A stretch of 64,000 bases of DNA from Candidatus Altimarinota bacterium (GTDB taxonomy: Bacteria > Patescibacteriota > Gracilibacteria > UBA1369). Location: assembly GCA_041752875.1 (NCBI GenBank), contig JBGSVP010000003.1, positions 122,803-186,802 on the forward strand. Reading direction: 5' to 3'. The translations under genes and the position numbers were made by a program. Positions within the stretch are counted from its first letter, which is position 1. Each line of letters starts with the position of its first letter. The notes under the pieces are model-generated. The model saw only the letters and a list, made by a program, of their open reading frames with translations. It searched no databases and was not told the DNA's origin. This document shows positions 1 through 46,575 of this stretch, piece after piece.

Positions 1-806
1 CCTGCACTTTTTAATACCGAGACTTTTGAATCATAGCTTCCACTGCTCCCCGAAATAATAGCACCCGCATGCCCCATTGTTTTTCCTTCGGGAGCGGCGC
101 GCCCGGCAATGTAAGCCACTACCGGCTTAGTGACATTGTTTTTTATATACTCCGCCGCTCGCTCCTCCGCTTCGCCACCGATCTCACCGATAAGCACAAT
201 AATTTTTGTCTCTTCATCCCGCTGAAATTTTTCCAGGGTCTCAATGTAGTTGATGCCGTTAATAAAATCTCCGCCGATACCCACAACGGTACTCTGTCCA
301 AAATTATTTTTACTAAGGTTATCCACAATCTCGTAAGTCAAAGTTCCGGACCTTGATACTATTCCGACATTTCCCCTGGTAAAGATATGCCCCGGCATAA
401 TGCCGATTTTACATTCACCGGGAGTAATGACTCCGGGGCAGTTCGGTCCGATAACGATAAGTCCTTTAGACTTTGCTTTAGCCACAATAGCCATCGTGTC
501 ACGTACAGGGATATGTTCGGTGATGATCACCAGATTCAATCCCGCATCAAGAGATTCCATCGCCGCTCCCAACGCTTTCGGTGCCGGTACAAAAATCGCG
601 GAAAAATCCGCCGGTGAAAATTTAAGAGACTCACTTACACTGTTAAATACCGGAACACCGTTCACACTTTGTCCGCCCTTACCCGGAGTAACTCCCGAGA
701 CGATTTTTGTGCCGTACTCCATCATTAAACCGGTATGGAATTTTCCTTGTTCACCGGTTATTCCCTGAACAATCACTTTGGTTTTATCGTCGACGATGAT
801 GCTCAT
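1..806 (-). CDS. sucD: Succinyl-CoA synthetase alpha subunit, first ~268 codons (gene runs off the left edge)
   Basis: My own translation of the minus strand from the ATG at 806 gives MSIIVDDKTKVIVQGITGEQGKFH...GPNCPGVITPGECKIGIMPG...SRSGTLTYE...MGHAGAIISG. This shows the CoA-binding motif and the phosphohistidine loop GHAGA. The ORF is missing from the track because it is edge-truncated. Confidence 0.9.
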   Translation of the reverse strand, partial: MSIIVDDKTKVIVQGITGEQGKFHTGLMMEYGTKIVSGVTPGKGGQSVNGVPVFNSVSESLKFSPADFSAIFVPAPKALGAAMESLDAGLNLVIITEHIPVRDTMAIVAKAKSKGLIVIGPNCPGVITPGECKIGIMPGHIFTRGNVGIVSRSGTLTYEIVDNLSKNNFGQSTVVGIGGDFINGINYIETLEKFQRDEETKIIVLIGEIGGEAEERAAEYIKNNVTKPVVAYIAGRAAPEGKTMGHAGAIISGSSGSYDSKVSVLKSA

Positions 807-15564: not shown

Positions 15565-15593
15565 TTGACAAACGGATAAAAATGTTATATTAT
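15565..15593 (+). promoter_or_regulatory. Sigma70-like promoter for the 15647 gene
   Basis: TTGACA (15565-15570), a 17-nt spacer, then TATTAT (15588-15593), about 50 nt upstream of the ATG. Confidence 0.5.
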
Positions 15594-15646: not shown

Positions 15647-16282
15647 ATGAAAAACATCACGAAAATGCTGAAACTGAATCAGAATGTAGTGATTGTTGCT
15701 ATTGGACTTTTTCTTGTCTCGTTCACCGCACTGATGTTCGTATTGAATTTCTCCGATAAGCATGATGGGAATGAACTCAAAACCACTGTTTTCGGAAGCT
15801 CATCGCCGGAACACATGGAAGAAAAAACGGTAGATATTGATTATAAGAAGTATACACACAATAGCGAAGATCCATATCTGGTATTGCGCAATGACGGAAC
15901 GATTTACCATTTAAGTGAAGGTTACAGGGCTCTGGAAGGTTTCGAGTCCGGAGAAATAGAAAACAAGCTTTTCTTCACTATGATAAAGATGGAAGATTTG
16001 GTCTCTTTCATGGCTTCGTTCGGCAAGGCTTTAGCCAGGGAACAGGAGATAGGTCTGGTAGGTCCGTACAGGCTAAAGAACAATAGCGGGCAGTACCATT
16101 ACATGGTCAGTTCAATGTACCCGATAGTCACGGAAGGCAAGGTAAGTCTGATAATAGTAACGGTAAAAAACATAAGTAAAGACCTGGACAACAAAAAAGA
16201 ATCCGGCAGTCAGCAGTCGGAAGGGAGCCAGGAAGCAAAAATATACGGTCCAAGCCAGCAGATTGCGTTCGTTAATCATTAG
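15647..16282 (+). CDS. Membrane-anchored hypothetical protein with PAS-like C-terminal domain
   Basis: N-terminal TM helix VVIVAIGLFLVSFTALMFVL. The C-terminal ~110 aa resemble a PAS fold (YLVLRNDGTIYHLSEGYRALEGF...GPYRLKNNSGQYHYM), but the assignment is weak. Confidence 0.5.
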   Translation: MKNITKMLKLNQNVVIVAIGLFLVSFTALMFVLNFSDKHDGNELKTTVFGSSSPEHMEEKTVDIDYKKYTHNSEDPYLVLRNDGTIYHLSEGYRALEGFESGEIENKLFFTMIKMEDLVSFMASFGKALAREQEIGLVGPYRLKNNSGQYHYMVSSMYPIVTEGKVSLIIVTVKNISKDLDNKKESGSQQSEGSQEAKIYGPSQQIAFVNH

Positions 16283-37650: not shown

Positions 37651-38550
37651 ATGCCAAAAGAAACCCCGGAACAACAACTCACAAAACAGGATGTGGAAAC
37701 CTTCATAGCACAGGTAAAAAACAGCACAGAATACGAAGATTTAGAATGCCGTGCGGTTATAGATGAAATCTCGACGCATATCCATAACTTACTTGTCGGA
37801 CCGGACATCATAGAACACCCGGTCTGTCTGGAAATTTTAGATAAAAAAATCAACGCCATCGCCGCGGCAATCCAAAAAGCGCACGAAAAAATGAACCAGC
37901 CCGAATTACCAGAACTGCTTTCACAAAGCTACGACGAAATGGCCGAAGTCCTTAAATATTTTGGTTTCGGCCATCCATTTATACTTAAAACATGGGTAAT
38001 GGAAGCTGTAAAGGCACTTCCTCTACATATGGTGGAAACGGTAAGGAAATTCGAAAAGCCGACCATAATCATCAGCCCGGCATGCGGCTTTGGAGCGAAA
38101 ATAGGAACCATAAAAACAAGTTATCCGCATTGCATCAACTGCTCCCCATCCCATGACCATGAACTTTGGGGTCAGAATCCGACTAAAAAGATAGTAAGCA
38201 TCGTAGACGGGATTGAATCCATGCCAGGCCTTGCCTACATCAAAAACAATATGACGATCGACTCAAAAATAGACAGATACAAAGAGGAATATAGAAAACA
38301 TCATCTGGAAATGATGGACATAAACGAGGCCGCAATGCTGGTGATGAAATCCCTGAAGACAGGAGAATACATAGACGATTCCTCACTCAACGGCACCGAA
38401 ACGTACTATAGTATGCATGGCTCCAACTTCACGCCCAATGTCCACTGGGAATCCGTTAACCAGAACTTCGATTTCAATACATACCACTTTTACGGAGCCA
38501 TGAGCCACAAAGTCCGCTGCCGCCCCTCGTTGAAACTATTGGAATATTAA
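37651..38550 (+). CDS. Paralog 5 of uncharacterised family (299 aa)
   Basis: MPKETPEQQLTKQDVETFIAQVKNSTEYEDLECRAVIDEIS, FEKPTIIISP, LWGQ...VSIVDGIESMP, AAMLVMKSL and the C-terminal VRCRPSLKLLEY. Confidence 0.85.
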   Translation: MPKETPEQQLTKQDVETFIAQVKNSTEYEDLECRAVIDEISTHIHNLLVGPDIIEHPVCLEILDKKINAIAAAIQKAHEKMNQPELPELLSQSYDEMAEVLKYFGFGHPFILKTWVMEAVKALPLHMVETVRKFEKPTIIISPACGFGAKIGTIKTSYPHCINCSPSHDHELWGQNPTKKIVSIVDGIESMPGLAYIKNNMTIDSKIDRYKEEYRKHHLEMMDINEAAMLVMKSLKTGEYIDDSSLNGTETYYSMHGSNFTPNVHWESVNQNFDFNTYHFYGAMSHKVRCRPSLKLLEY

Positions 38551-38556
38551 ACACCC

Positions 38557-39531
38557 ATGCCAGAAAAAATCACAAAACAGGACCTGGAAAACTTCCTGGA
38601 TCAGGTAAAAAACAGCGAAGAGTACGAAAATCCGGAATTCGCCAAGGTTATCGATGATTTCGCAATTGAAATCAGAAGTCATCTGATAATCCAGGGCGTT
38701 CTGGATAGTAATCATCAATTGGATAACTTTGTAATCAAAAAGATCGACCGGGTGATAGACGCCATCGGCACGGCAATAACTATCGCGGCTGCCGACCATA
38801 AAGAATTCCCTTTTCTAAACGATGAAAAACTGAAAGAAATGGTCATGGGCTACCCCGAATCCATCATCACCGCCAAAGAAATAGACCCGAAAGCGGAAAT
38901 CAAACCGGTAAAAGAAGTCCTGGCGAGAATCAAAAACCTTGGCCCCGACATTCTTCGGGAAATCGCCAAATTCCAAAGACCGACACTGCTCGTAACCCCC
39001 AAAAACAGCTTCCTGGAAAAGAAAGAGAACATGGATCACCATAAGAGATATGTGGACGAAAAAGGAAAAGGCCAGGCGGATACATGGCATATGGAAAAAG
39101 AAGACAGCCCATATTTAGAGGTCAGCACCTCGGATTCAACATTGATCAGCATTGTAGAAGGGGCGGCAAGATTGAAACATCGACCCGATATTATTCCGTG
39201 CGAGTCCCAACTTGAAGAGAGAAAAAAGGCATTTATAAATCATTACATAGAGAAAAAAATTCTTTTGATCAGTGTCCACGAGTACGCGGTACTGATGCAA
39301 CGTTCACTCAGGGAATACAGACGGCACGGAAATGATAAAGGCAAAATCCTGGATTATTTCGAAAATGAAAAAGACACAGTCACATGTCTGGGCGACAGAC
39401 ATTTGAAAAAAACGACCAGAATCCCCGTCGCTTTCTTCGCCGCACGCAAAGTATCCTTCTCCGCCTACGGCCCGGATTTCACCATCGATAACTTCTGCGC
39501 CCGTCCTTCGCACCCTTTAATGTTATATTAA
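38557..39531 (+). CDS. Paralog 6 of uncharacterised family (324 aa)
   Basis: MPEKITKQDLENFLDQVKNSEEYENPEFAKVID, FQRPTLLVTPKNSF, ISIVEGAARL, HEYAVLMQRSL and the C-terminal CARPSHPLMLY. Confidence 0.85.
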   Translation: MPEKITKQDLENFLDQVKNSEEYENPEFAKVIDDFAIEIRSHLIIQGVLDSNHQLDNFVIKKIDRVIDAIGTAITIAAADHKEFPFLNDEKLKEMVMGYPESIITAKEIDPKAEIKPVKEVLARIKNLGPDILREIAKFQRPTLLVTPKNSFLEKKENMDHHKRYVDEKGKGQADTWHMEKEDSPYLEVSTSDSTLISIVEGAARLKHRPDIIPCESQLEERKKAFINHYIEKKILLISVHEYAVLMQRSLREYRRHGNDKGKILDYFENEKDTVTCLGDRHLKKTTRIPVAFFAARKVSFSAYGPDFTIDNFCARPSHPLMLY

Positions 39532-39539
39532 ACTGCCCC

Positions 39540-40451
39540 ATGCCCGAACAACTCACAAAACAGGACCTGGAAAACTTCCTGAAACAGGTAAATGAAAGCG
39601 AAGAATCCGACGACACCGAATGCAGGGAAGTCATAGACAAAGCGGCATCAAAAATCAGAGCGTGCATCCTATTTTTGGCAGACACCATAGAAGATAAGAC
39701 CGTAATCCATGAAATCGAAGGCTACATAGACGCCATCGCCGACGCGGTTAAAAAAGCCCAAGAAAAGCTGAATCCGCCTAAATTGATTGAAAGTCTTTCG
39801 AAAAGTTTCGACGAGATGGCCGATTCATACGAAGACTTCGGCTTCGGCAAGCTCGACCCTGAAATAAAAATCTGGACGATGGCTAATATACAATATCTTA
39901 GTGCCACCAAATTGGAAACAATAAACAGCTTCGGAAAACCGACCATCATAATCACCCCCCCGGGAAGTTTTAAGTCAAAAGTAGACGCCATAGACCACAA
40001 CAAGCAGATAGAACATCAATGCTGGACCTACTGTGATCCTTCCCCAAGCGATCCATTATGGGGTGGCGAACAGACCTGGTTGGAAGTCAGCGTTGTAGAT
40101 GGCATTGAAGCAATGCCGGAACCGACCTTTATAAAGGATAATTTTACTGTCGGCGATAGAATGAAAATATACGAAAATGAATTTAAAAAACAAAAGTTAA
40201 ACCTAATGGGATTACATGCAGGCGCGATGTTAATGATGAAATCGCTAAAAAATGGCATGCCGGTTGATGATCTACTTAAAGCCAATACAGCGACATATTA
40301 TAAGACAAAAGGATTAACATATTTTAGTAGAATACCATCCATATTATGGCACTCAAAGAATAGTCATGTAACTTTCAGCATGCAATCTGCAAAGACCTAC
40401 GGCTGCTCCCATCTACGTTGCAGACCATCATTGACGCTACTTAGCCATTAA
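39540..40451 (+). CDS. Paralog 7 of uncharacterised family (303 aa)
   Basis: MPEQLTKQDLENFLKQVNESEESDDTECREVIDK, FGKPTIIITPPGSFKSKVDAIDHN, LWGG...VSVVDGIEAMP, GAMLMMKSL and the C-terminal LRCRPSLTLLSH. Confidence 0.85.
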   Translation: MPEQLTKQDLENFLKQVNESEESDDTECREVIDKAASKIRACILFLADTIEDKTVIHEIEGYIDAIADAVKKAQEKLNPPKLIESLSKSFDEMADSYEDFGFGKLDPEIKIWTMANIQYLSATKLETINSFGKPTIIITPPGSFKSKVDAIDHNKQIEHQCWTYCDPSPSDPLWGGEQTWLEVSVVDGIEAMPEPTFIKDNFTVGDRMKIYENEFKKQKLNLMGLHAGAMLMMKSLKNGMPVDDLLKANTATYYKTKGLTYFSRIPSILWHSKNSHVTFSMQSAKTYGCSHLRCRPSLTLLSH

Positions 40452-40545
40452 TCACTCACTGGCCCCCCCGTAAGCCGCCAGCGCAACGGCCCGCCAAGCC
40501 ACCAGCGCAGCGCCGTGGCGCCCCCCACCCCCCCATCGCCATAGA

Positions 40546-40674
40546 TCCAAAAGTGTCAAATTTCTTATTTTAGCCCGTCGGCAAGCAAAAAAAACAGGAG
40601 CCGTACGAGTGGTACGGTGAGTGTTTTTTTATGCGCAGTCCGGCGCGCTAAAATAAAAATTTCACACTTTTGGA
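40546..40674. repeat. 129-bp unit with ~28-bp terminal inverted repeats enclosing the terminator
   Basis: The left arm TCCAAAAGTGTCAAATTTCTTATTTTAGC (40546-40574) matches the reverse complement of 40647-40674 with one mismatch and one indel. The unit ends 4 nt from the 3' end of tRNA-Phe. Confidence 0.6.
40601..40630. terminator. Bidirectional intrinsic-type terminator shared by the paralog operon (+) and tRNA-Phe (-)
   Basis: CCGTAC-gagtg-GTACGG with TTTTTTT downstream (40624-40630) and AAAAAAAA upstream (40591-40598). Both U-tracts sit 6 nt from the stem, so efficiency is uncertain. Confidence 0.5.
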
Positions 40675-40678
40675 CTTT

Positions 40679-40753
40679 TGGTGCCAGGGGGCAGGATCGA
40701 ACTGCCGACGCAAGGATTTTCAGTCCTTCGCTCTACCACTGAGCTACCCCGGC
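40679..40753 (-). tRNA. tRNA-Phe (anticodon GAA), CCA encoded
   Basis: Hand-folded cloverleaf. Acceptor GCCGGGG/CCCTGGC with one G-U pair, D arm GCTC-AGTGGTA-GAGC, anticodon stem AAGGA/TCCTT with loop CTGAAAA, T arm GGCAG-TTCGATC-CTGCC, discriminator A, then CCA. 75 nt. Confidence 0.9.
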
Positions 40754-40835
40754 AAGCATCCAAGAGCACGCAGAGCTTACAATAACGGTTTACAAATTTC
40801 AATGCCCGCCGCAACAAAAAGTTAAAGCATTGGGC

Positions 40836-40865
40836 TTGACAATGGATATATTTATTTGGTATAAT
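40836..40865 (+). promoter_or_regulatory. Near-consensus sigma70 promoter with extended -10
   Basis: TTGACA (40836-40841), an 18-nt spacer ending in TGG, then TATAAT (40860-40865), i.e. TGnTATAAT. This is the best promoter match in the window, and no protein gene lies downstream of it. Confidence 0.7.
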
Positions 40866-40871
40866 ATTATG

Positions 40872-41463
40872 AAACGCTAAGAAAAGACATGTTCTTCCGC
40901 CCCTCCACCCGCTCTTTGTCATCACAGGAAAACTTATCCTTAGGGAGAAAGCTGTTAGAGGCCTTGAGTATTGAATCCGCCATTCATGCTTAAATTCTTT
41001 GGCAGCTTCCTCCCTAAGCTTAAGGGTTTGAACTGTCTCCTTTTTATCCCCCAGATCTAAAGAAGACACCGCTTATTTCCGCTTGATGGGCTTGGAGGTC
41101 AGGCATACGAAATATTCGGAATGAACTTAACCTGCATCTGTCGTCTTCTCCTGGACTATGCCAAGCATATCTCCTGGTCATGACTTATGGGATGCTTTCG
41201 TTAAGGTCGAAAGACTTCTATGGAAATTTTAATCTTTTTCCACGGCGTTCATTGTCCACTCCCTTTGCTTAGGGAGTCCATGATCTTTCACAACTAGTCA
41301 GCCATAAACTTGGGAGAAAGCCGTTAAAGGCCTTTGGTATTATTTCTACACCCTATAATACCCGAATCCTTTGCCGGCTTCCTCCCTAAGTTTCTGTGCT
41401 TTAAGTCTGTATCTCTATGATCCGTGAGTCCCCCAGGTTCACGGCACATCTGTTCTTTTCGTT
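40872..41463 (+). ncRNA. Candidate large (~590 nt) structured non-coding RNA, family unassigned
   Basis: There is no plus-strand ORF of 60 aa or more between the promoter and 41494. Two homologous long helices are present: 40939-40954 pairs with 41003-41018, and 41308-41323 pairs with 41375-41391. They carry a compensatory change, AGCTG/CAGCT in the first versus AGCCG/CGGCT in the second. Further hairpins lie at 41258-41277 (ACTCCCT/AGGGAGT) and around 41196-41214 (CTTTCG/CGAAAG). A possible terminator hairpin CCGTGA..TCACGG (41422-41444) is followed by a U-rich tract. The 3' end is uncertain. Confidence 0.5.
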
Positions 41464-41699
41464 CGGTGGGTAAAAAGGCCGGGCTGTAAATGAATGGAAA
41501 TAGACCTCGTTTTCCGACTATGGTGTTTTTTCGGTCTTGGACTTCGGTTCATCTTCGTCAGACATTGTAAATCGGCAAATGAAAGTGATTCTGTCTTATG
41601 GCAGCAATGTCATGATTCGTGGCGCTATTCTGGAAACCAATCTTTCCGGGATGCTTATTGTCTTACAGGTTTATCGTATGGTTTCTTGGGGGGGATTTT

Positions 41700-42614
41700 T
41701 TATATCTCTTTCCCGTTCGGATAAATTATCCTGTCCACAAAGACGCGCGGATCCGGATATTCCTTAAGCAGACGGTAGATGTTTTCGACGGTTATGTTGC
41801 CGGAAGATATGATTCCGCTTAAGAATTTTTCGTCCACCGCTTCCATTATATGTTCTGCCATTTTTTCGTGTACGCCGGAGGAAATCATCTCTATCCGTTT
41901 TTTCTCGCGCGCTTCTTCGAAAGGGTCTTTTCGGTTGGGGTCTTGTGACATCTTTACCGCCTCCCTGTGGGTTTCATGGATCATTTCCCGTTTTTCCTTC
42001 GGTACTATTAGTCTTAGGTTGGCGGGGATTTTGGCATCATCATCCGTAAGGTCGGCATAAAGGTTTTCGGCGAACTTATTTTTAAGGAAATCTACGCCTC
42101 CACTTTCGCACATGGTGGCTATGATAGCCGCTGTCCTTGTCTTTTTTGCGCAATAAAGCGAATGTAGTTCCGGATAGTTTATGATCATGCAGTCGCTCTC
42201 GATTTCTTCGTCCAGTTCATGGATATCCTCATCCAGATTTTGACAGTGGGGCGTTATGAATTCGTCTTCCCCGTCTCCGTAGATAAAATCGTACATAGTC
42301 GGCAACAGATAAGCCAGCGGCCTGTAATCCTTAATAATCTGTTCAACCCCCTCCGTGTCGCGCAGATATTCCAGAAACCTCTTTTCCAAAGCCTCACACG
42401 TTTTTGGGCGGACGTTTTTCCTGTTTTTCATCGCCGCCACAGCCTTGTCAGGTAATTTAACGCCCCCCGATTTGAGCGCTTCTTTGAGAAGATTCGAAAG
42501 TTTATCCGGCAAACCGAATTCACGGGCAAGCCTTTTCGCGGTAATCCTGTCGGATTCGTCCATCAGCTCTTCTATTTTGGCTATTTTATCCGAAGAATCT
42601 ATCCTTTCGGTCAT
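41700..42614 (-). CDS. Hypothetical protein (304 aa, acidic, helical)
   Basis: A long ORF with coding-like composition and no recognisable motif. Confidence 0.6.
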   Translation of the reverse strand: MTERIDSSDKIAKIEELMDESDRITAKRLAREFGLPDKLSNLLKEALKSGGVKLPDKAVAAMKNRKNVRPKTCEALEKRFLEYLRDTEGVEQIIKDYRPLAYLLPTMYDFIYGDGEDEFITPHCQNLDEDIHELDEEIESDCMIINYPELHSLYCAKKTRTAAIIATMCESGGVDFLKNKFAENLYADLTDDDAKIPANLRLIVPKEKREMIHETHREAVKMSQDPNRKDPFEEAREKKRIEMISSGVHEKMAEHIMEAVDEKFLSGIISSGNITVENIYRLLKEYPDPRVFVDRIIYPNGKEI

Positions 42615-42688: not shown

Positions 42689-43210
42689 CTAGAAATTGCC
42701 CGCGCAAAGCCTTTTGTCCCAGATTCCGGCTTCGTTGTCTTGAGCCTCCTGTTGGTCTTTCAGAAATTTTTCACGCTCCTTGTAAGGCTTGTATTCGGGA
42801 TTAGATTCCTTGGCCAGCCCGTCCTTAAGCAGATCCGCATTCAGCATAGACCCATCCGCGAGGGTGACATAACGCAACAGCCTTCCATAGATGTCCTTAT
42901 CTCCCATCTTATCGTCCTTCGTGAGCGTTACGTTAAGGCTCTTGCCGAAATATCTCTCCGCCGCCAGTCTTTTTGCTTCCTCATCGAAACACTGGGCAGA
43001 TCCGTCCACTCCTGTAGTTTCGGGCGCGTCCACGCCAATCAGCTGAACTCTTTTCAGCTTGCCCCCCTCCATAACAATCAGACTGTCCGGGTCAGTCATG
43101 TGGACAATATAGGTCCTACCGTTCAATAAAGGAAAAACAATGAACTGATAAAGTGAGTATACGATCAGCACCAGTACCGCTAAAGTAAAAAAAGGTCTTA
43201 AGATTCTCAT
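42689..43210 (-). CDS. Membrane-anchored thermonuclease (Staphylococcal nuclease, SNase fold)
   Basis: N-terminal TM helix. Contains VQLIGVDAPE, DIYGRLLRYV, LN..LLKDGLA and a C-terminal GIWD, the SNase signature blocks. Confidence 0.8.
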   Translation of the reverse strand: MRILRPFFTLAVLVLIVYSLYQFIVFPLLNGRTYIVHMTDPDSLIVMEGGKLKRVQLIGVDAPETTGVDGSAQCFDEEAKRLAAERYFGKSLNVTLTKDDKMGDKDIYGRLLRYVTLADGSMLNADLLKDGLAKESNPEYKPYKEREKFLKDQQEAQDNEAGIWDKRLCAGNF

Positions 43211-43331
43211 ACATAATTAAATGACGGGCGCTAAATATAAACCACAAACGCAAGATTTGGCAAGTAAAAGCACCCACAATTAAAAGCCCCCTTACCGGGA
43301 AATATGTTTAAACTCACCCGACAAAGTTGAA

Positions 43332-43907
43332 TCAGACATTTTTCATCAGGAACTCCGTATTCCAGACCTCCGCGCCCAGCTTTCTCAATTCTTTCATCGT
43401 CGGTTCGCGGTTGAGTTCGTTAATCGGTTTTACGGCATCGGCCGGGATCCATACCTTGAAGCCCTCTTTAAGCAGGTTCACGACATCCATCTCTATTCCG
43501 TAATCCAGGGCAACGCCGTAGATTATCAGATTTTGCCGTTTCAAGCTTTTCAGCAAAGCCAAAGAATGTCTGTTACTCAAAAGATTGAACCCGGTCGTTT
43601 CCAGATGGATCGAAGGAAAAGTATTAAGCAGACACCCATAATTTATTTTATGATTGATATTGGGAATCAGCACTGCGCCTTTGATTTCGGTCTCCGGAAT
43701 TTTGTCATATCCGGTCAGCCCGGGAACGCAGTATTTTTCACCGGTTTCCACTGAAGAGATTAGTGGAATCCCTCTGGAAAGGGCGCATATCGTGAGCTTT
43801 TTCAGGTTCGGCCGGATTTCGGCGGCATCCTTGATAAACTTGAGCCCCTTGCTATTGAAGAATTCATGTTGAGTATTGATATCCAGGAATATGCAGTCTT
43901 CGATCAT
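43332..43907 (-). CDS. Isochorismatase-like (cysteine hydrolase fold) protein, possibly lacking the catalytic Cys
   Basis: The N-terminal IFLDINTQHEFF matches the D-x-Q-x-x-F block. LIIYGVALDYGIEMDV matches the G-x-x-T-D-x-C-V block but has Gly where the nucleophile Cys normally sits. Its start overlaps the lon stop by 4 nt. Confidence 0.5.
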   Translation of the reverse strand: MIEDCIFLDINTQHEFFNSKGLKFIKDAAEIRPNLKKLTICALSRGIPLISSVETGEKYCVPGLTGYDKIPETEIKGAVLIPNINHKINYGCLLNTFPSIHLETTGFNLLSNRHSLALLKSLKRQNLIIYGVALDYGIEMDVVNLLKEGFKVWIPADAVKPINELNREPTMKELRKLGAEVWNTEFLMKNV

Positions 43908-46387
43908 TTCTTTTTGATTTGTAATATTTTGGTGACGATTTTCTTGTTAGATTTCTTCTTTGACGGCTTTTTAACGTTGGAATGTGAAGAAGAATGTCCG
44001 CTCCCGGGTATGAGCGCAAGTTTAATTGCATCTTCGACAGTATTGGCGAACTTGATGTTAAGGTTAGCCAACATATGCTTCGGAATATCGAGCAGATCTT
44101 TCCTGTTCCTCTCCGGAATGATGATATTCTTTATCTGCACACGCTTTGCCGCCAGAAGTTTTTCTTTAAGTCCTCCTATCGGCAAAACTCTGCCCGTAAG
44201 AGTTATTTCGCCCGTCATAGCGGTATCGTGTCTGATTTTTTGGCCCGTGAGAAGTGAAATCAGCGCGGTACAGATTGTTATTCCGGCTGAAGGTCCGTCT
44301 TTTGGCGTCGCTCCTTCGGGGACATGTATATGAATGTCGGACTTTTCGAAGATTTTTTCGTCGATATGAAGTTTTTCGGCATTGCTCCTTATGTAACTCA
44401 ATGCCGCGCGTGCCGATTCCTGCATCACATCACCAAGACTGCCGGTCAGAATAAGGTTTTTCGATCCTTTCATCTTAGTCGCTTCTATAAATATGATATC
44501 GCCGCCGCTCGGAGTCCATGCCAATCCTGTCGCCACTCCGACCGTATCTTCCCTTTGTGCCGCTTCAAAAGTATATTTCTCCACCCCCAGATATTTGAAG
44601 ATGTCCGCCTTGCTGATGACATCTATCTCCTTCTTTTCTTCGATAAATTCCTTGGCAACCTTTCGGCACACGGTCGCAATCTGCCTTTCCAAATCGCGAA
44701 GTCCCGCTTCACCGGTATAGTATTGGACTATGTGGATGATGGCTTCGTCCGTAAATTTGAGAGGTCTCTTTGCAAGTCCGTTAAGTTCGATTTCCTTCGG
44801 CAACAGATAACGTTTCGCAATCTGAAGTTTTTCTTCTTCGGTATAACCGGCCAGTTCGATAATCTCCATCCTGTCCAGCAGGGCCGGAGGAATCGGATCC
44901 AGAAAGTTTGCGGTCAGAATGAAGAATACTTTGGAAAGATCGAAAGGCACATCCAGATAATGATCCGTAAAAGCATTGTTCTGTTCGGGGTCCAGAACTT
45001 CCAGCAGTGCCGAAGCCGGATCCCCCTGAAAATCTTTTCCCATCTTGTCTATTTCATCGAGCATAAAAACCGGATCATCGAAACCGGCCCGCTTGATGCT
45101 CTGTATGATGCGTCCCGGCATAGCTCCCACATAAGTACGCCTGTGCCCGCGAATATCGGCTTCGTCGCGTATACCGCCCAGTGAAGTATGAATAAAGGCC
45201 CGTCCCATCGCCCGCGCTATCGATTTACCTAGTGAAGTCTTTCCGACCCCGGGCGGCCCGACAAAACAAAGTATCGTGGCCCCGCACCTCTTTTTCAACT
45301 GGCAGATTGCCAGATATTCCAGGATGCGCTCCTTAATCTTCTCCAGCCCGTAATGGTCTTCATCGAGTATCTTCCTTGCTTTTTTCACTTCCACCTTGCC
45401 GGGACTGCTTTTGCCCCACGGCATTTCGCACAACCACTCTATATATGTACGCGCCACGGCATACTCCGGTGAAATCTGGAATATCTTTTTCAACCTCTCC
45501 AGTTCGTTGTTGGCTATCTTTTCCACTTCGGCAGGCATCTTCGCGCTCTTAATCTTCTGGGCCAGTTCTTTGGTTTCCTGTTCGTCGTTCATCCCTCCCA
45601 TTCCTCCGAAATCGTTGGAGTCTTCTCCCAGCTCTTTTTTGATGGCCTTCAGCTCCTGTTTCAAAAGAAAATTTCTTTCGCTCTTATTCATCTCTTTGGA
45701 TATGTCCGTGCGAATTTTTTTCCTGATTTTCAGAAGCTGTATCTCTTTCATCAGATATTCCGCAATCTTCGTCAGTCTGACATTGTGGTCTATCAGTGAC
45801 AGCAGTTCCTGTTTTTTTTGAATATCCAGAGTAAGGAACGAACAAGCCAAATCCTCGATCTGGTCTATTTCCGTGACATTTTCCAGTCCCGCAAAAAGTT
45901 CCGGCGGCAAAGTCTTTCCTTGTTCCGAAGCTTCCTTAATCAGCGATACTATTTCCTGTGCCTTCGACTGCAGATTAACATCTTCGTCAGGTGCGCTCTT
46001 TACCGGTATGACTTTCGCAATCATAAACGGCTTCTCCTGTAAGAATTTTTCCGGATTGATTCTGCTGATTCCTTCGACAAGCACCATCGCGTCCGTACCG
46101 GTGCTTCCCTTAATGATCTGCAATATGTAGGCGCTTGTTCCCACATCATAAAGGTTATCCGTAGGAGGGGCGGGCTTGGAATGATCTCTCTGCGTTAACA
46201 ACCCAATCAGCTCCTGTTCCTGGTTGGCTTTTTCAACCGCCGCCAGTAGTTCCGGACTATGAATAAAAACCGTCACGACCATAGTCGGAAATATCACCAG
46301 GTCCTTTATCGGGATGACTACTATTTCTTTTGGAAGCTTATATTCCTTCTCCTGCCTGGAATCATTATCTGTAATATTCAGTGCCAT
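43904..46387 (-). CDS. lon: ATP-dependent Lon protease
   Basis: Lon N-terminal domain, Walker A GPPGVGKTS, Walker B FMLDEIDK, and a protease domain with PKDGPSAGI (catalytic Ser). I moved the start to the ATG at 46387 (MALNITDN), because the 31-codon extension in the track has no homology-like features. Confidence 0.95.
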   Translation of the reverse strand: MALNITDNDSRQEKEYKLPKEIVVIPIKDLVIFPTMVVTVFIHSPELLAAVEKANQEQELIGLLTQRDHSKPAPPTDNLYDVGTSAYILQIIKGSTGTDAMVLVEGISRINPEKFLQEKPFMIAKVIPVKSAPDEDVNLQSKAQEIVSLIKEASEQGKTLPPELFAGLENVTEIDQIEDLACSFLTLDIQKKQELLSLIDHNVRLTKIAEYLMKEIQLLKIRKKIRTDISKEMNKSERNFLLKQELKAIKKELGEDSNDFGGMGGMNDEQETKELAQKIKSAKMPAEVEKIANNELERLKKIFQISPEYAVARTYIEWLCEMPWGKSSPGKVEVKKARKILDEDHYGLEKIKERILEYLAICQLKKRCGATILCFVGPPGVGKTSLGKSIARAMGRAFIHTSLGGIRDEADIRGHRRTYVGAMPGRIIQSIKRAGFDDPVFMLDEIDKMGKDFQGDPASALLEVLDPEQNNAFTDHYLDVPFDLSKVFFILTANFLDPIPPALLDRMEIIELAGYTEEEKLQIAKRYLLPKEIELNGLAKRPLKFTDEAIIHIVQYYTGEAGLRDLERQIATVCRKVAKEFIEEKKEIDVISKADIFKYLGVEKYTFEAAQREDTVGVATGLAWTPSGGDIIFIEATKMKGSKNLILTGSLGDVMQESARAALSYIRSNAEKLHIDEKIFEKSDIHIHVPEGATPKDGPSAGITICTALISLLTGQKIRHDTAMTGEITLTGRVLPIGGLKEKLLAAKRVQIKNIIIPERNRKDLLDIPKHMLANLNIKFANTVEDAIKLALIPGSGHSSSHSNVKKPSKKKSNKKIVTKILQIKKK

Positions 46388-46575
46388 GCTGTGGAATATG
46401 AAATAAATATATCTGTACATGATAGCAAAAAAACGGCTTTTAATCCATGAACAAGGCCGTGAAATGAAGCTCAATTCCAAAAGATATATTGCCGAAATGG
46501 AAATATTGTTTTATAATTACATAGAAGTGACAAAAATAAGCAAAAATCCAATAAAAAACATCATAAAAACCCACA

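Follow-up and report, generated by a model that had tools for sequence, protein, structure and literature searches.

The stretch analysed here, 64,000 nt of contig JBGSVP010000003.1 from a Candidatus Altimarinota bacterium (the window, whose first letter is position 1), contains between a tRNA-Phe gene (40679-40753) and an open reading frame (ORF) of 304 aa on the minus strand (41700-42614) about 950 nt without a credible gene. An earlier note on this DNA, written from the letters alone, had proposed a promoter-driven, ORF-free large structured RNA beside tRNA-Phe, and homologues, covariation and Rfam searches all agree with that proposal. We consider it probable (at about 0.62) that the plus strand from 40872 to ~41703 holds a gene in its own right, encoding a large, modular and highly structured non-coding RNA (ncRNA), for which a trans-acting bistable scaffold is the favoured role. 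As far as we can tell this RNA represents an undescribed family of large bacterial ncRNAs, and apparently a new class among the large RNAs of bacteria. It is composed of one to three tandem homologous units of ~400 nt each, and the window copy has two.

The promoter had been regarded as the best in the window, and it is indeed the sole 12/12 TTGACA/TATAAT pair when both strands of the 64 kb are scanned, with the additional TG of an extended -10 box (TG at 40857-58, TATAAT at 40860-65; score 12/12 plus TG). The second-best promoter-like site, at 15565 on the plus strand (TTGACA, 17 nt, TATTAT, 11/12), lies just 5' of the ORF 15647-16282. A TTGACA or TTGACT -35 box followed by a TGn-extended -10 box is present in every homologue with 5' sequence, and at the equivalent relative position in L002, L004, L005, L006, L007, L012, L013, L014, L016 and L017 (L numbers designate the loci gathered in our searches). 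As stated before, no plus-strand ORF of at least 60 aa occurs in 40836-41463, the longest having 34 aa, and the minus-strand ORF 40662-41069 overlaps the tRNA-Phe gene. A conserved small ORF, which would have spoken against the RNA, was not seen among the homologues: no ORF conserved in frame or extent was found with either code 11 or code 25, the longest ORFs differ in position and frame, stop codons number 7-41 per frame, and all three frames of the window copy are interrupted. Two small hydrophobic-peptide ORFs (type I toxin-like; 40971-41060 and 41334-41420) were considered and rejected, given that the FLPK they share is the translated 3' arm of a repeated hairpin and that they start at non-equivalent TTG codons.

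A search for homologous regions in related metagenome-assembled genomes (MAGs), suggested by the earlier note as a check, yielded homologues, about 22 of them distinct, in metagenomes and in MAGs of Gracilibacteria, Peribacteria and Peregrinibacteria. The first search used the exact pattern GGGAGAAAGCYG-N40-70-CRGCTTCCTCCC against one genome per species (185,579 species) and matched four MAGs, from Gracilibacteria (L002, L006), Peribacteria (L004) and Peregrinibacteria (L005). Matches in Clostridiales MAGs (L001 and L003) were rejected, L001 being an unrelated GC-rich hairpin and neither of them matching covariance model R1, which describes two core hairpins. The matches in L002, L004 and L006 adjoin a divergent tRNA-Phe gene and lie behind a TTGACA promoter, and a second pattern, derived from the downstream part of the RNA, found 11 metagenome contigs. 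Because sampling by patterns forces invariance, a pattern-independent route was added via the neighbouring SNase-like protein, for which there were 19 homologues (35-54% identity); contigs were taken for nine of these. In every SNase contig with downstream DNA the RNA follows SNase immediately and lies on the other strand, with ten full-length nhmmer matches at seven distinct loci (E from 6e-83 to 1.9e-33) and a partial match only in L030 (E = 1.5e-4), and in these contigs the tRNA-Phe gene lies past the RNA. As far as sampled, the family is restricted to Gracilibacteria-, Peribacteria- and Peregrinibacteria-type bacteria from the candidate phyla radiation (CPR).

The window RNA aligns over its full length with eight homologues, in which conservation runs ~240 nt past 41463. 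The RNA is thus ~830 nt long (40872 to ~41703); the ~590 nt ending at 41463 proposed earlier fell ~240 nt short. The hairpin at 41422-41444, which had been taken as terminator-like, exists; it was not called by the terminator scan and corresponds to a conserved internal hairpin, H2. In most homologues the 3' end is a long conserved hairpin followed by a U-run, with a conserved apex UUGGUCA...UUUUGACCCUCAGUCCUCAAG and a module-like form in L014 and L017. This terminal hairpin/terminator was found neither in the window copy nor elsewhere in the 64-kb window, and no substitute terminator was found 3' of 41703 (z = 0.29). A site listed as terminator-like by the consensus scan, hairpin H8, was rejected as such, being internal to the RNA.

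Two hairpin modules of ~80 nt had been reported, and both are real (40933-41024 and 41308-41390, with direct-repeat arms 78-87% identical), as are the compensatory change between them (GCTG/CAGC to GCCG/CGGC) and the six GGGAG/CTCCC elements, three of each. They are the 5' hairpins of two complete homologous units of ~400 nt. An nhmmer profile of unit 2 matches the window at 41306-41703 (E = 4e-80) and, over the full profile length, at 40941-41282 (unit 1, E = 1.6e-22), and finds no further copies in the 64-kb window; covariance model R1 matches both units, with 84 and 38 bits. The motif GGGAGAAAGCYG, with at most one mismatch, occurs five times in the window, four times as the arms of both modules and once at an unrelated place (62712), against a chance expectation of 0.55, and none of 100 shuffles reached five. 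The unit number is one in L017 and L028, two in the window and most other copies, and three in L004 (loci L017 2390-2960, L028 4141-4900 on the minus strand, and L004 3630-5000). A reduced variant is present in L030 (3968-4600, minus strand), consisting of a unit-1-type module, H2, H3 and then a plain terminator. In most homologues a linker motif, YUUGAAAAY, often preceded by GA(C/U)(A/U), stands before each unit and after the last (for example L002 1410-1420 and 2222-2230, L016 ext 435-445); it is degenerate in the window and may be a processing or binding site.

Each unit is built of the long hairpin (module) and a core in which six or more helices covary and which a long-range helix, P1, closes. 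RNAalifold predicted 88 pairs from 16 unit-2 sequences, in which 95.0% of the cells can pair and 54 of the 88 pairs change on both sides, compared with 27.6 ± 3.2 after column shuffling (0/500) and 13-22 when the partners were slid by 1-3 columns. With 21 distinct sequences the corresponding figures are 95.2% and 62 of 88, with 35.2 ± 3.1 in the shuffles (0/500) and 18-26 in the slid controls. The loop of H2, GUCCCCCAGGU, is almost invariant across the homologues.

The strand of the RNA is also indicated by these alignments. Minimum free energy (MFE) z-scores are -6.6 for the plus and -5.5 for the minus strand, and as both strands fold better than shuffles, folding energy alone cannot tell the strand. 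G-U pairs are conserved at 161-171 in all 21 sequences, at 377-407 in all those having the column and at 192-227 in 20 of 21; on the other strand these would be A-C, which identifies the plus strand as the RNA strand. An RNA from the minus strand was considered, given that an A-C mismatch conserved in the module would be G-U there, and was rejected: the promoters and terminators point the opposite way, the conserved G-U pairs would break, and the mismatched C instead pairs with G in P1.

The pairing partners of P1 are the pyrimidine-rich 3' arm of the hairpin with the ~18 nt that follow it, and a purine-rich tail (UUUAGGGAGGA) ~330 nt downstream with the ~18 nt that precede it. This tail, which in unit 2 of the window reads CUUGGGGGGGA (41685-41695), resembles the hairpin's 5' arm and is complementary to the 3' arm (UCCUCCCUAAG, 41380-41390), so that P1 and the lower stem of the hairpin use the same 3'-arm nucleotides and are mutually exclusive. 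The helix of tail and 3' arm is termed P1a, and in it the C of the hairpin's conserved A-C mismatch pairs with G, which accounts for the mismatch. Among 19 sequences P1a is 98.9% paired, with four covarying pairs, and it is chosen by RNAalifold over the lower stem on the 21-sequence alignment; P1b, the inward continuation of P1, has covarying partners such as GGGAUUGG/CCAAUCCC, GGGUUGAGC/GCUCAACCC and GGGUUUAGG/CCUAAACCC. Among 21 units, duplexes of arm and tail average -28.8 kcal/mol when cognate versus -21.0 when non-cognate (0/20000 permutations), and P1b alone -12.1 versus -6.8 kcal/mol (0/20000). When either state is forced, the energies differ by 0.1-9 kcal/mol, P1a being favoured in 10 of 18 sequences and the lower stem in 7; in the window P1a is favoured by 4.1 kcal/mol. 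On these energies and pairings, P1 and the lower stem would constitute a bistable element, or at least a programmed co-transcriptional strand exchange.

A tertiary contact is also suggested by the alignment. In the near-invariant H2 loop the third to fifth C covary with the likewise near-invariant GGG of the adjacent H3 loop, being C-G in nearly all unit-2 copies (CCCCC with GGG) and U-A in L028 (CCUCC with GGA; at loop pair 165-204, 19 sequences have CG and one has UA), and the unit-1 copies of L005, L024, L012 and L022 have CCGCC with GGC (G-C). These events, few in number, support a kissing contact between the H2 and H3 loops, predicted in the window between C41432-41434 and G41468-41470. 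The features of the locus are collected in Table 1.

Table 1. Features of the RNA locus in the window, with adjoining genes.
Feature	Position	Strand	Sequence elements and support
tRNA-Phe(GAA), divergent neighbour (context)	40679..40753	-	ARAGORN and Rfam
Sigma-70 promoter	40836..40865	+	-35 TTGACA 40836-40841, 18-nt spacer, extended -10 TGGTATAAT
Predicted large ncRNA transcript	40872..41703	+	5' end from the promoter; 3' end is the last homologue-aligned base, ..CUUGGGGGGGAUUUUUU
5' leader	40872..40932	+	start AAACGCUAAGAAAAGACAU similar to L016 start; UUGAAAA linker motif degenerate
Unit 1 module hairpin M1	40933..41024	+	5' arm CUUAGGGAGAAAGCUG.., 3' arm ..CAGCUUCCUCCCUAAG; inverted repeat I1 (39-nt arms, 72% complementary), in MFE fold, homologous to M2
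Unit 1 P1 5' strand	41007..41036	+	3' arm and GGGUUUGAAC segment; pairs with 41250-41279; RNAduplex -28.6 kcal/mol; exact 10-nt complement CTCCCTAAGC/GCTTAGGGAG (repeat I5)
Unit 1 hairpins H2 (loop UCCCCCAGA) and H3 (loop GGGC..)	41034..41122	+	covariance model R1 38 bits, E = 4e-7, full model length
Unit 1 P1 3' strand	41250..41279	+	includes tail GCUUAGGGAGUCC
Unit 2, best-conserved unit	41305..41703	+	nhmmer E = 4e-80
Unit 2 module hairpin M2	41310..41388	+	5' arm UUGGGAGAAAGCCG.., 3' arm ..CGGCUUCCUCCCUA; upper stem, both-side changes in 10/13 pairs
Unit 2 hairpin H2	41416..41448	+	loop UCCCCCAGG (41429-41437) near-invariant; 8/13 stem pairs covary
Unit 2 helix H3, loop GGGUAAAAAG	41449..41498	+	12/15 pairs covary
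Unit 2 helices H4 and H5, long arm with UUCG-type cap hairpin	41506..41583	+	13/18 pairs covary
Unit 2 hairpin H6/H7 (UCUG...CAG.AAUG)	41589..41623	+	6/6 pairs covary
Unit 2 hairpin H8 (GGAAACCAAU..UUUCC)	41626..41653	+	7/9 pairs covary
Unit 2 P1 3' strand	41666..41695	+	tail CUUGGGGGGGA (41685-41695) pairs with UCCUCCCUAAG (41380-41390); RNAduplex -27.4 kcal/mol
SNase-like nuclease gene, convergent neighbour (context)	42689..43210	-	Pfam PF00565, E = 4e-19

To place the RNA among known families, Rfam 15 was applied to the window at gathering thresholds, which returned only the tRNA in this region, and all 4227 models were then run with cmscan, the check proposed earlier, without a family match in 40500-41900 at E <= 10 or in nine homologous loci at E <= 1. 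The remaining output consisted of the tRNA and of sub-threshold models of miRNA precursors, which match any long hairpin. Neither the ROOL (RF03087) nor the GOLLD (RF01998) covariance model matched the window region or the nine loci, and the same is true of the models for OLE, HEARO, raiA, T-large and other large ncRNAs in Rfam. The absence of an RNase P, tmRNA, 6S or signal recognition particle (SRP) RNA signature, already remarked on the bare sequence, was borne out by Rfam and by ARAGORN, which gives only tRNAs in the window and in all loci; group I and group II introns and self-cleaving ribozymes had no Rfam match at permissive thresholds. Pattern scans and BLAST gave no match for the RNA in viral contigs and phage records, and BLAST of the region found nothing in plasmid and phage collections. 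No published description of the RNA was found in open-access papers and bioRxiv, nor any paper there joining structured RNA with Gracilibacteria, large noncoding RNA with CPR, or Patescibacteria with ROOL or GOLLD. The features generally expected of a structured ncRNA gene are present, namely a promoter, terminators in the homologues, conservation across lineages and covariation.

The likeness to ROOL and GOLLD noted earlier stands for size class and tRNA adjacency and does not extend to any Rfam match: these are bacterial ncRNAs of 0.5-1 kb with many covarying helices and their own promoter, often beside tRNA genes, but their hosts are Firmicutes, phages and others, whereas the RNA described here is found in Gracilibacteria-type CPR bacteria and has one to three tandem units with an exchange between hairpin and P1, which to our knowledge is not a described feature of either. 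OLE, HEARO and raiA are likewise large, structured, lineage-restricted and discovered through comparative genomics; the neighbours of the new RNA, however, are tRNA-Phe, SNase and Lon, with no OLE protein genes or IscB nearby. Riboswitches and tandem aptamers share with it a multi-helix core closed by P1, a strand with a competitor, states of similar energy and tandem domains, but in the new RNA the competitor lies upstream in a long hairpin, there is no expression platform (terminator, or Shine-Dalgarno (SD) sequence with AUG), the 330-nt core is far larger than known aptamers, and no co-directional gene follows. A riboswitch or T-box leader was rejected, given that in the window, as in 11 loci, the gene that follows is convergent and that no Rfam riboswitch or T-box model matches. 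In its proposed role the RNA resembles CsrB/RsmZ and 6S RNA, which are trans-acting, abundant and non-coding, with a strong promoter and variable repeated binding modules, but its repeat is a ~400-nt domain with predicted tertiary contacts instead of a short GGA hairpin. In E. coli SRP RNA a 5' hairpin is displaced co-transcriptionally by a later strand, so that in both cases an early local hairpin would be replaced by a long-range helix via strand displacement; the two RNAs are unrelated, and in the new one both states are conserved and near-isoenergetic, so that the exchange may be reversible.

From these observations we postulate that each unit would be an autonomously folding, bistable domain. 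The lower stem of the hairpin would form first during transcription, and the tail would then displace it by toehold strand exchange, starting from P1b, or else both states would equilibrate. Closure of P1 would complete the core and free the purine-rich 5' arm and the UUGAAAA linker, the exchange exposing either the 5' arm or the tail and linker. The RNA is not expected to be a cis-regulator, because the downstream gene is convergent. By analogy, and with low certainty, it could be an abundant trans-acting scaffold or sequestering RNA whose conserved loops and junctions would bind protein or RNA, and the unit copy number might set the number of binding domains (valency). A more far-reaching proposal, that the RNA is essential to Gracilibacteria-type CPR bacteria and that ligand- or protein-triggered bistable units drive, by their exchange of P1 and hairpin, higher-order RNA assembly, catalysis or ribosome regulation, as an unprecedented functional class, seems to us unlikely.

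Several points weigh against the gene and scaffold interpretation. Transcription, ends and abundance are predictions made from sequence. The window copy is the most divergent, being ~60% identical to the other copies, and forms 78 of the 88 consensus pairs (88.6%), the second-lowest fraction, with only the partial L010 lower; as it is also without the conserved terminal hairpin/terminator, partial decay of this copy is conceivable. Exact patterns, which forced some columns to be invariant, supplied about half of the sequences, and the alignment of 21 sequences, seven of them from the pattern-independent route, is a small sample. The proposed switch rests on two covarying alternative helices and on nearest-neighbour energies, and the lower stem has only one or two compensatory events, so that this stem may represent just an intermediate of folding or may lack a function. 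The suggested scaffold or sequestration role, in turn, is drawn from analogy and from there being no co-directional gene downstream.

Processing into units, RNA-only oligomers and mimicry of ribosomal or SD sequences all rank below a scaffold or sequestering role. It is possible, if rather doubtful, that the primary transcript is a precursor cut at the UUGAAAA linkers into functional ~400-nt unit RNAs, comparable to tRNA/rRNA operons or ToxI repeats. The linker before each unit and after the last in most homologues, the closure of each unit by its own P1 helix and the variation of unit number from 1 to 3 would all fit such cutting, but no ribozyme or known processing motif was detected by Rfam searches of the window region and the nine loci, and the linker is degenerate in the window; processing is in any case compatible with a scaffold made of units and not exclusive of it. 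Self-assembly into an RNA-only homo-oligomer, in which an excess of purine strands over pyrimidine 3' arms would mediate intermolecular swaps, is less probable. It is recommended by the size class and tRNA adjacency, by the two near-isoenergetic partners available to each 3' arm in every unit, and by conserved loops free for kissing contacts, and ROOL and GOLLD form homo-oligomeric complexes according to PMC12286853. However, the new RNA has no homology to either, and the covariation between loops is explained by an intramolecular contact of adjacent hairpins.

A role in translation, in which the GGGAG/GGAGG arms and tails would mimic SD sequences and the apical loop GACCCACCUCCUCAU would mimic the 3' end of 16S rRNA, the RNA titrating 30S subunits or mRNAs according to its state, we regard as improbable. 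The tail UUUAGGGAGGA and the 5' arm AUAGGGAG do contain GGAG/GGAGG, one purine element per unit is single-stranded in each state, and the M2 apical loop carries CCCACCUCCUC or CCCACCUCUUC in 10 of the 19 homologues with an apex in the alignment; yet the window, L005, L012, L014, L017, L022, L024 and L026 lack this anti-SD-like loop, and helices rich in purines and pyrimidines yield such likenesses by chance. The loop GACCCACCUCCUCAU of the second module, which contains CACCUCCU, the usual 3' end of 16S rRNA, occurs in nine homologues, with CCCACCUCUUC in L002 in addition, is missing from the window and about eight others, and lies at A4 columns ~50-90 (for example L002 1880-1900 and L016 2580-2600). 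Pairing of the tail with this loop was considered and dropped, as it is not conserved across homologues. We give as little credit to the idea that the RNA belongs to a described family missing from Rfam 15 and from the searchable literature, against which stand the negative cmscan results for the window and nine loci and the negative survey of open-access and bioRxiv papers. That there is no functional RNA at all, the locus being a decaying pseudogene, a repeat like a miniature inverted-repeat transposable element (MITE) or a gene pair for small hydrophobic peptides, is hardly credible: palindromic modules can resemble MITE ends and two ORFs of 28-29 aa share FLPK, but those ORFs start at non-equivalent TTGs with no ORF conserved in frame or extent, compensatory changes are pervasive, and conservation of the RNA spans lineages that share no more than 67% identity in Lon. 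A dispersed MITE- or REP-like repeat is likewise rejected, the module pattern having matched one locus per genome among the 185,579 species genomes and the gene order being conserved.

Large structured bacterial RNAs are rare, and we know of only a handful of classes, OLE, GOLLD, ROOL, HEARO and raiA among them, each of which has brought surprises in biology or structure, RNA-only nanocages being the latest. The candidate is set apart by its strong covariation support and by an unusual architecture, in which 400-nt domains stand in tandem and two competing helices are conserved in each. The RNA occurs in a lineage with small genomes; if this holds for its hosts, a non-coding stretch of ~1 kb that follows the best promoter of the 64 kb is probably not dispensable. 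The RNA biology of CPR bacteria is almost unexplored, and the candidate offers it a concrete, testable object; a new Rfam family would also improve the annotation of such genomes.

The surroundings of the RNA follow a conserved order, with tRNA-Phe (leftward), the RNA (rightward), SNase (leftward), sometimes a NUDIX or isochorismatase gene, and then Lon. The tRNA-Phe neighbour is found in L002, L004, L006, L012, L017, L018, L019 and L022-L025, and the contigs of L020, L028 and L030 end in sequence that can be read as part of a tRNA. A tblastn match to SNase adjoins the RNA in 11 loci and is convergent in all of them, as it is in the SNase-derived contigs. The block SNase, NUDIX/isochorismatase and Lon is conserved between the window (42689-46480), L002, L008 and L018-L025. 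Compared with the Gracilibacteria MAG L002, Lon of the window is 67% and SNase 50% identical, which makes the source a rather remote relative inside this group. The SNase homologues have an N-terminal hydrophobic segment (MRILRP..LYQ..) and from this sequence look membrane-anchored or exported.

An orphan gene between the RNA and SNase is present only in the window. Its 304-aa product has no Pfam domain and matches only itself among 5.8 billion proteins, so that anchoring synteny on homologues of this protein returned the self-match only. The ORF occupies the place held in all homologous loci by the conserved terminal hairpin/terminator, which there directly precedes SNase, and has the look of an insertion specific to this lineage by which the RNA lost its 3' module. 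In L010 (Ga0255232_1017845, 1-400, minus strand) the 3' two-thirds of a unit begin inside H2, right after an ORF for a DnaQ-like exonuclease and downstream of a LuxR-type regulator, and 23 nt are repeated at the end of the contig; the assembly is probably chimeric or broken, and L010 was used as a partial sequence only.

Upstream of tRNA-Phe, 37651-40451 on the plus strand holds three tandem paralogous ORFs (299, 324 and 303 aa, starting MPE..TKQDLENFL..), which have no Pfam match and no tblastn counterpart in the 16 pattern-derived loci (L001-L017), the RNA-bearing ones included. The third paralogue is followed at 40452-40560 by an unusually G+C-rich stretch (..GCGCCCCCCACCCCCCC..), and a bidirectional terminator-like hairpin, GCCGTACGAGTGGTACGGT, with A- and T-run flanks, lies at 40600-40618, just before tRNA-Phe.

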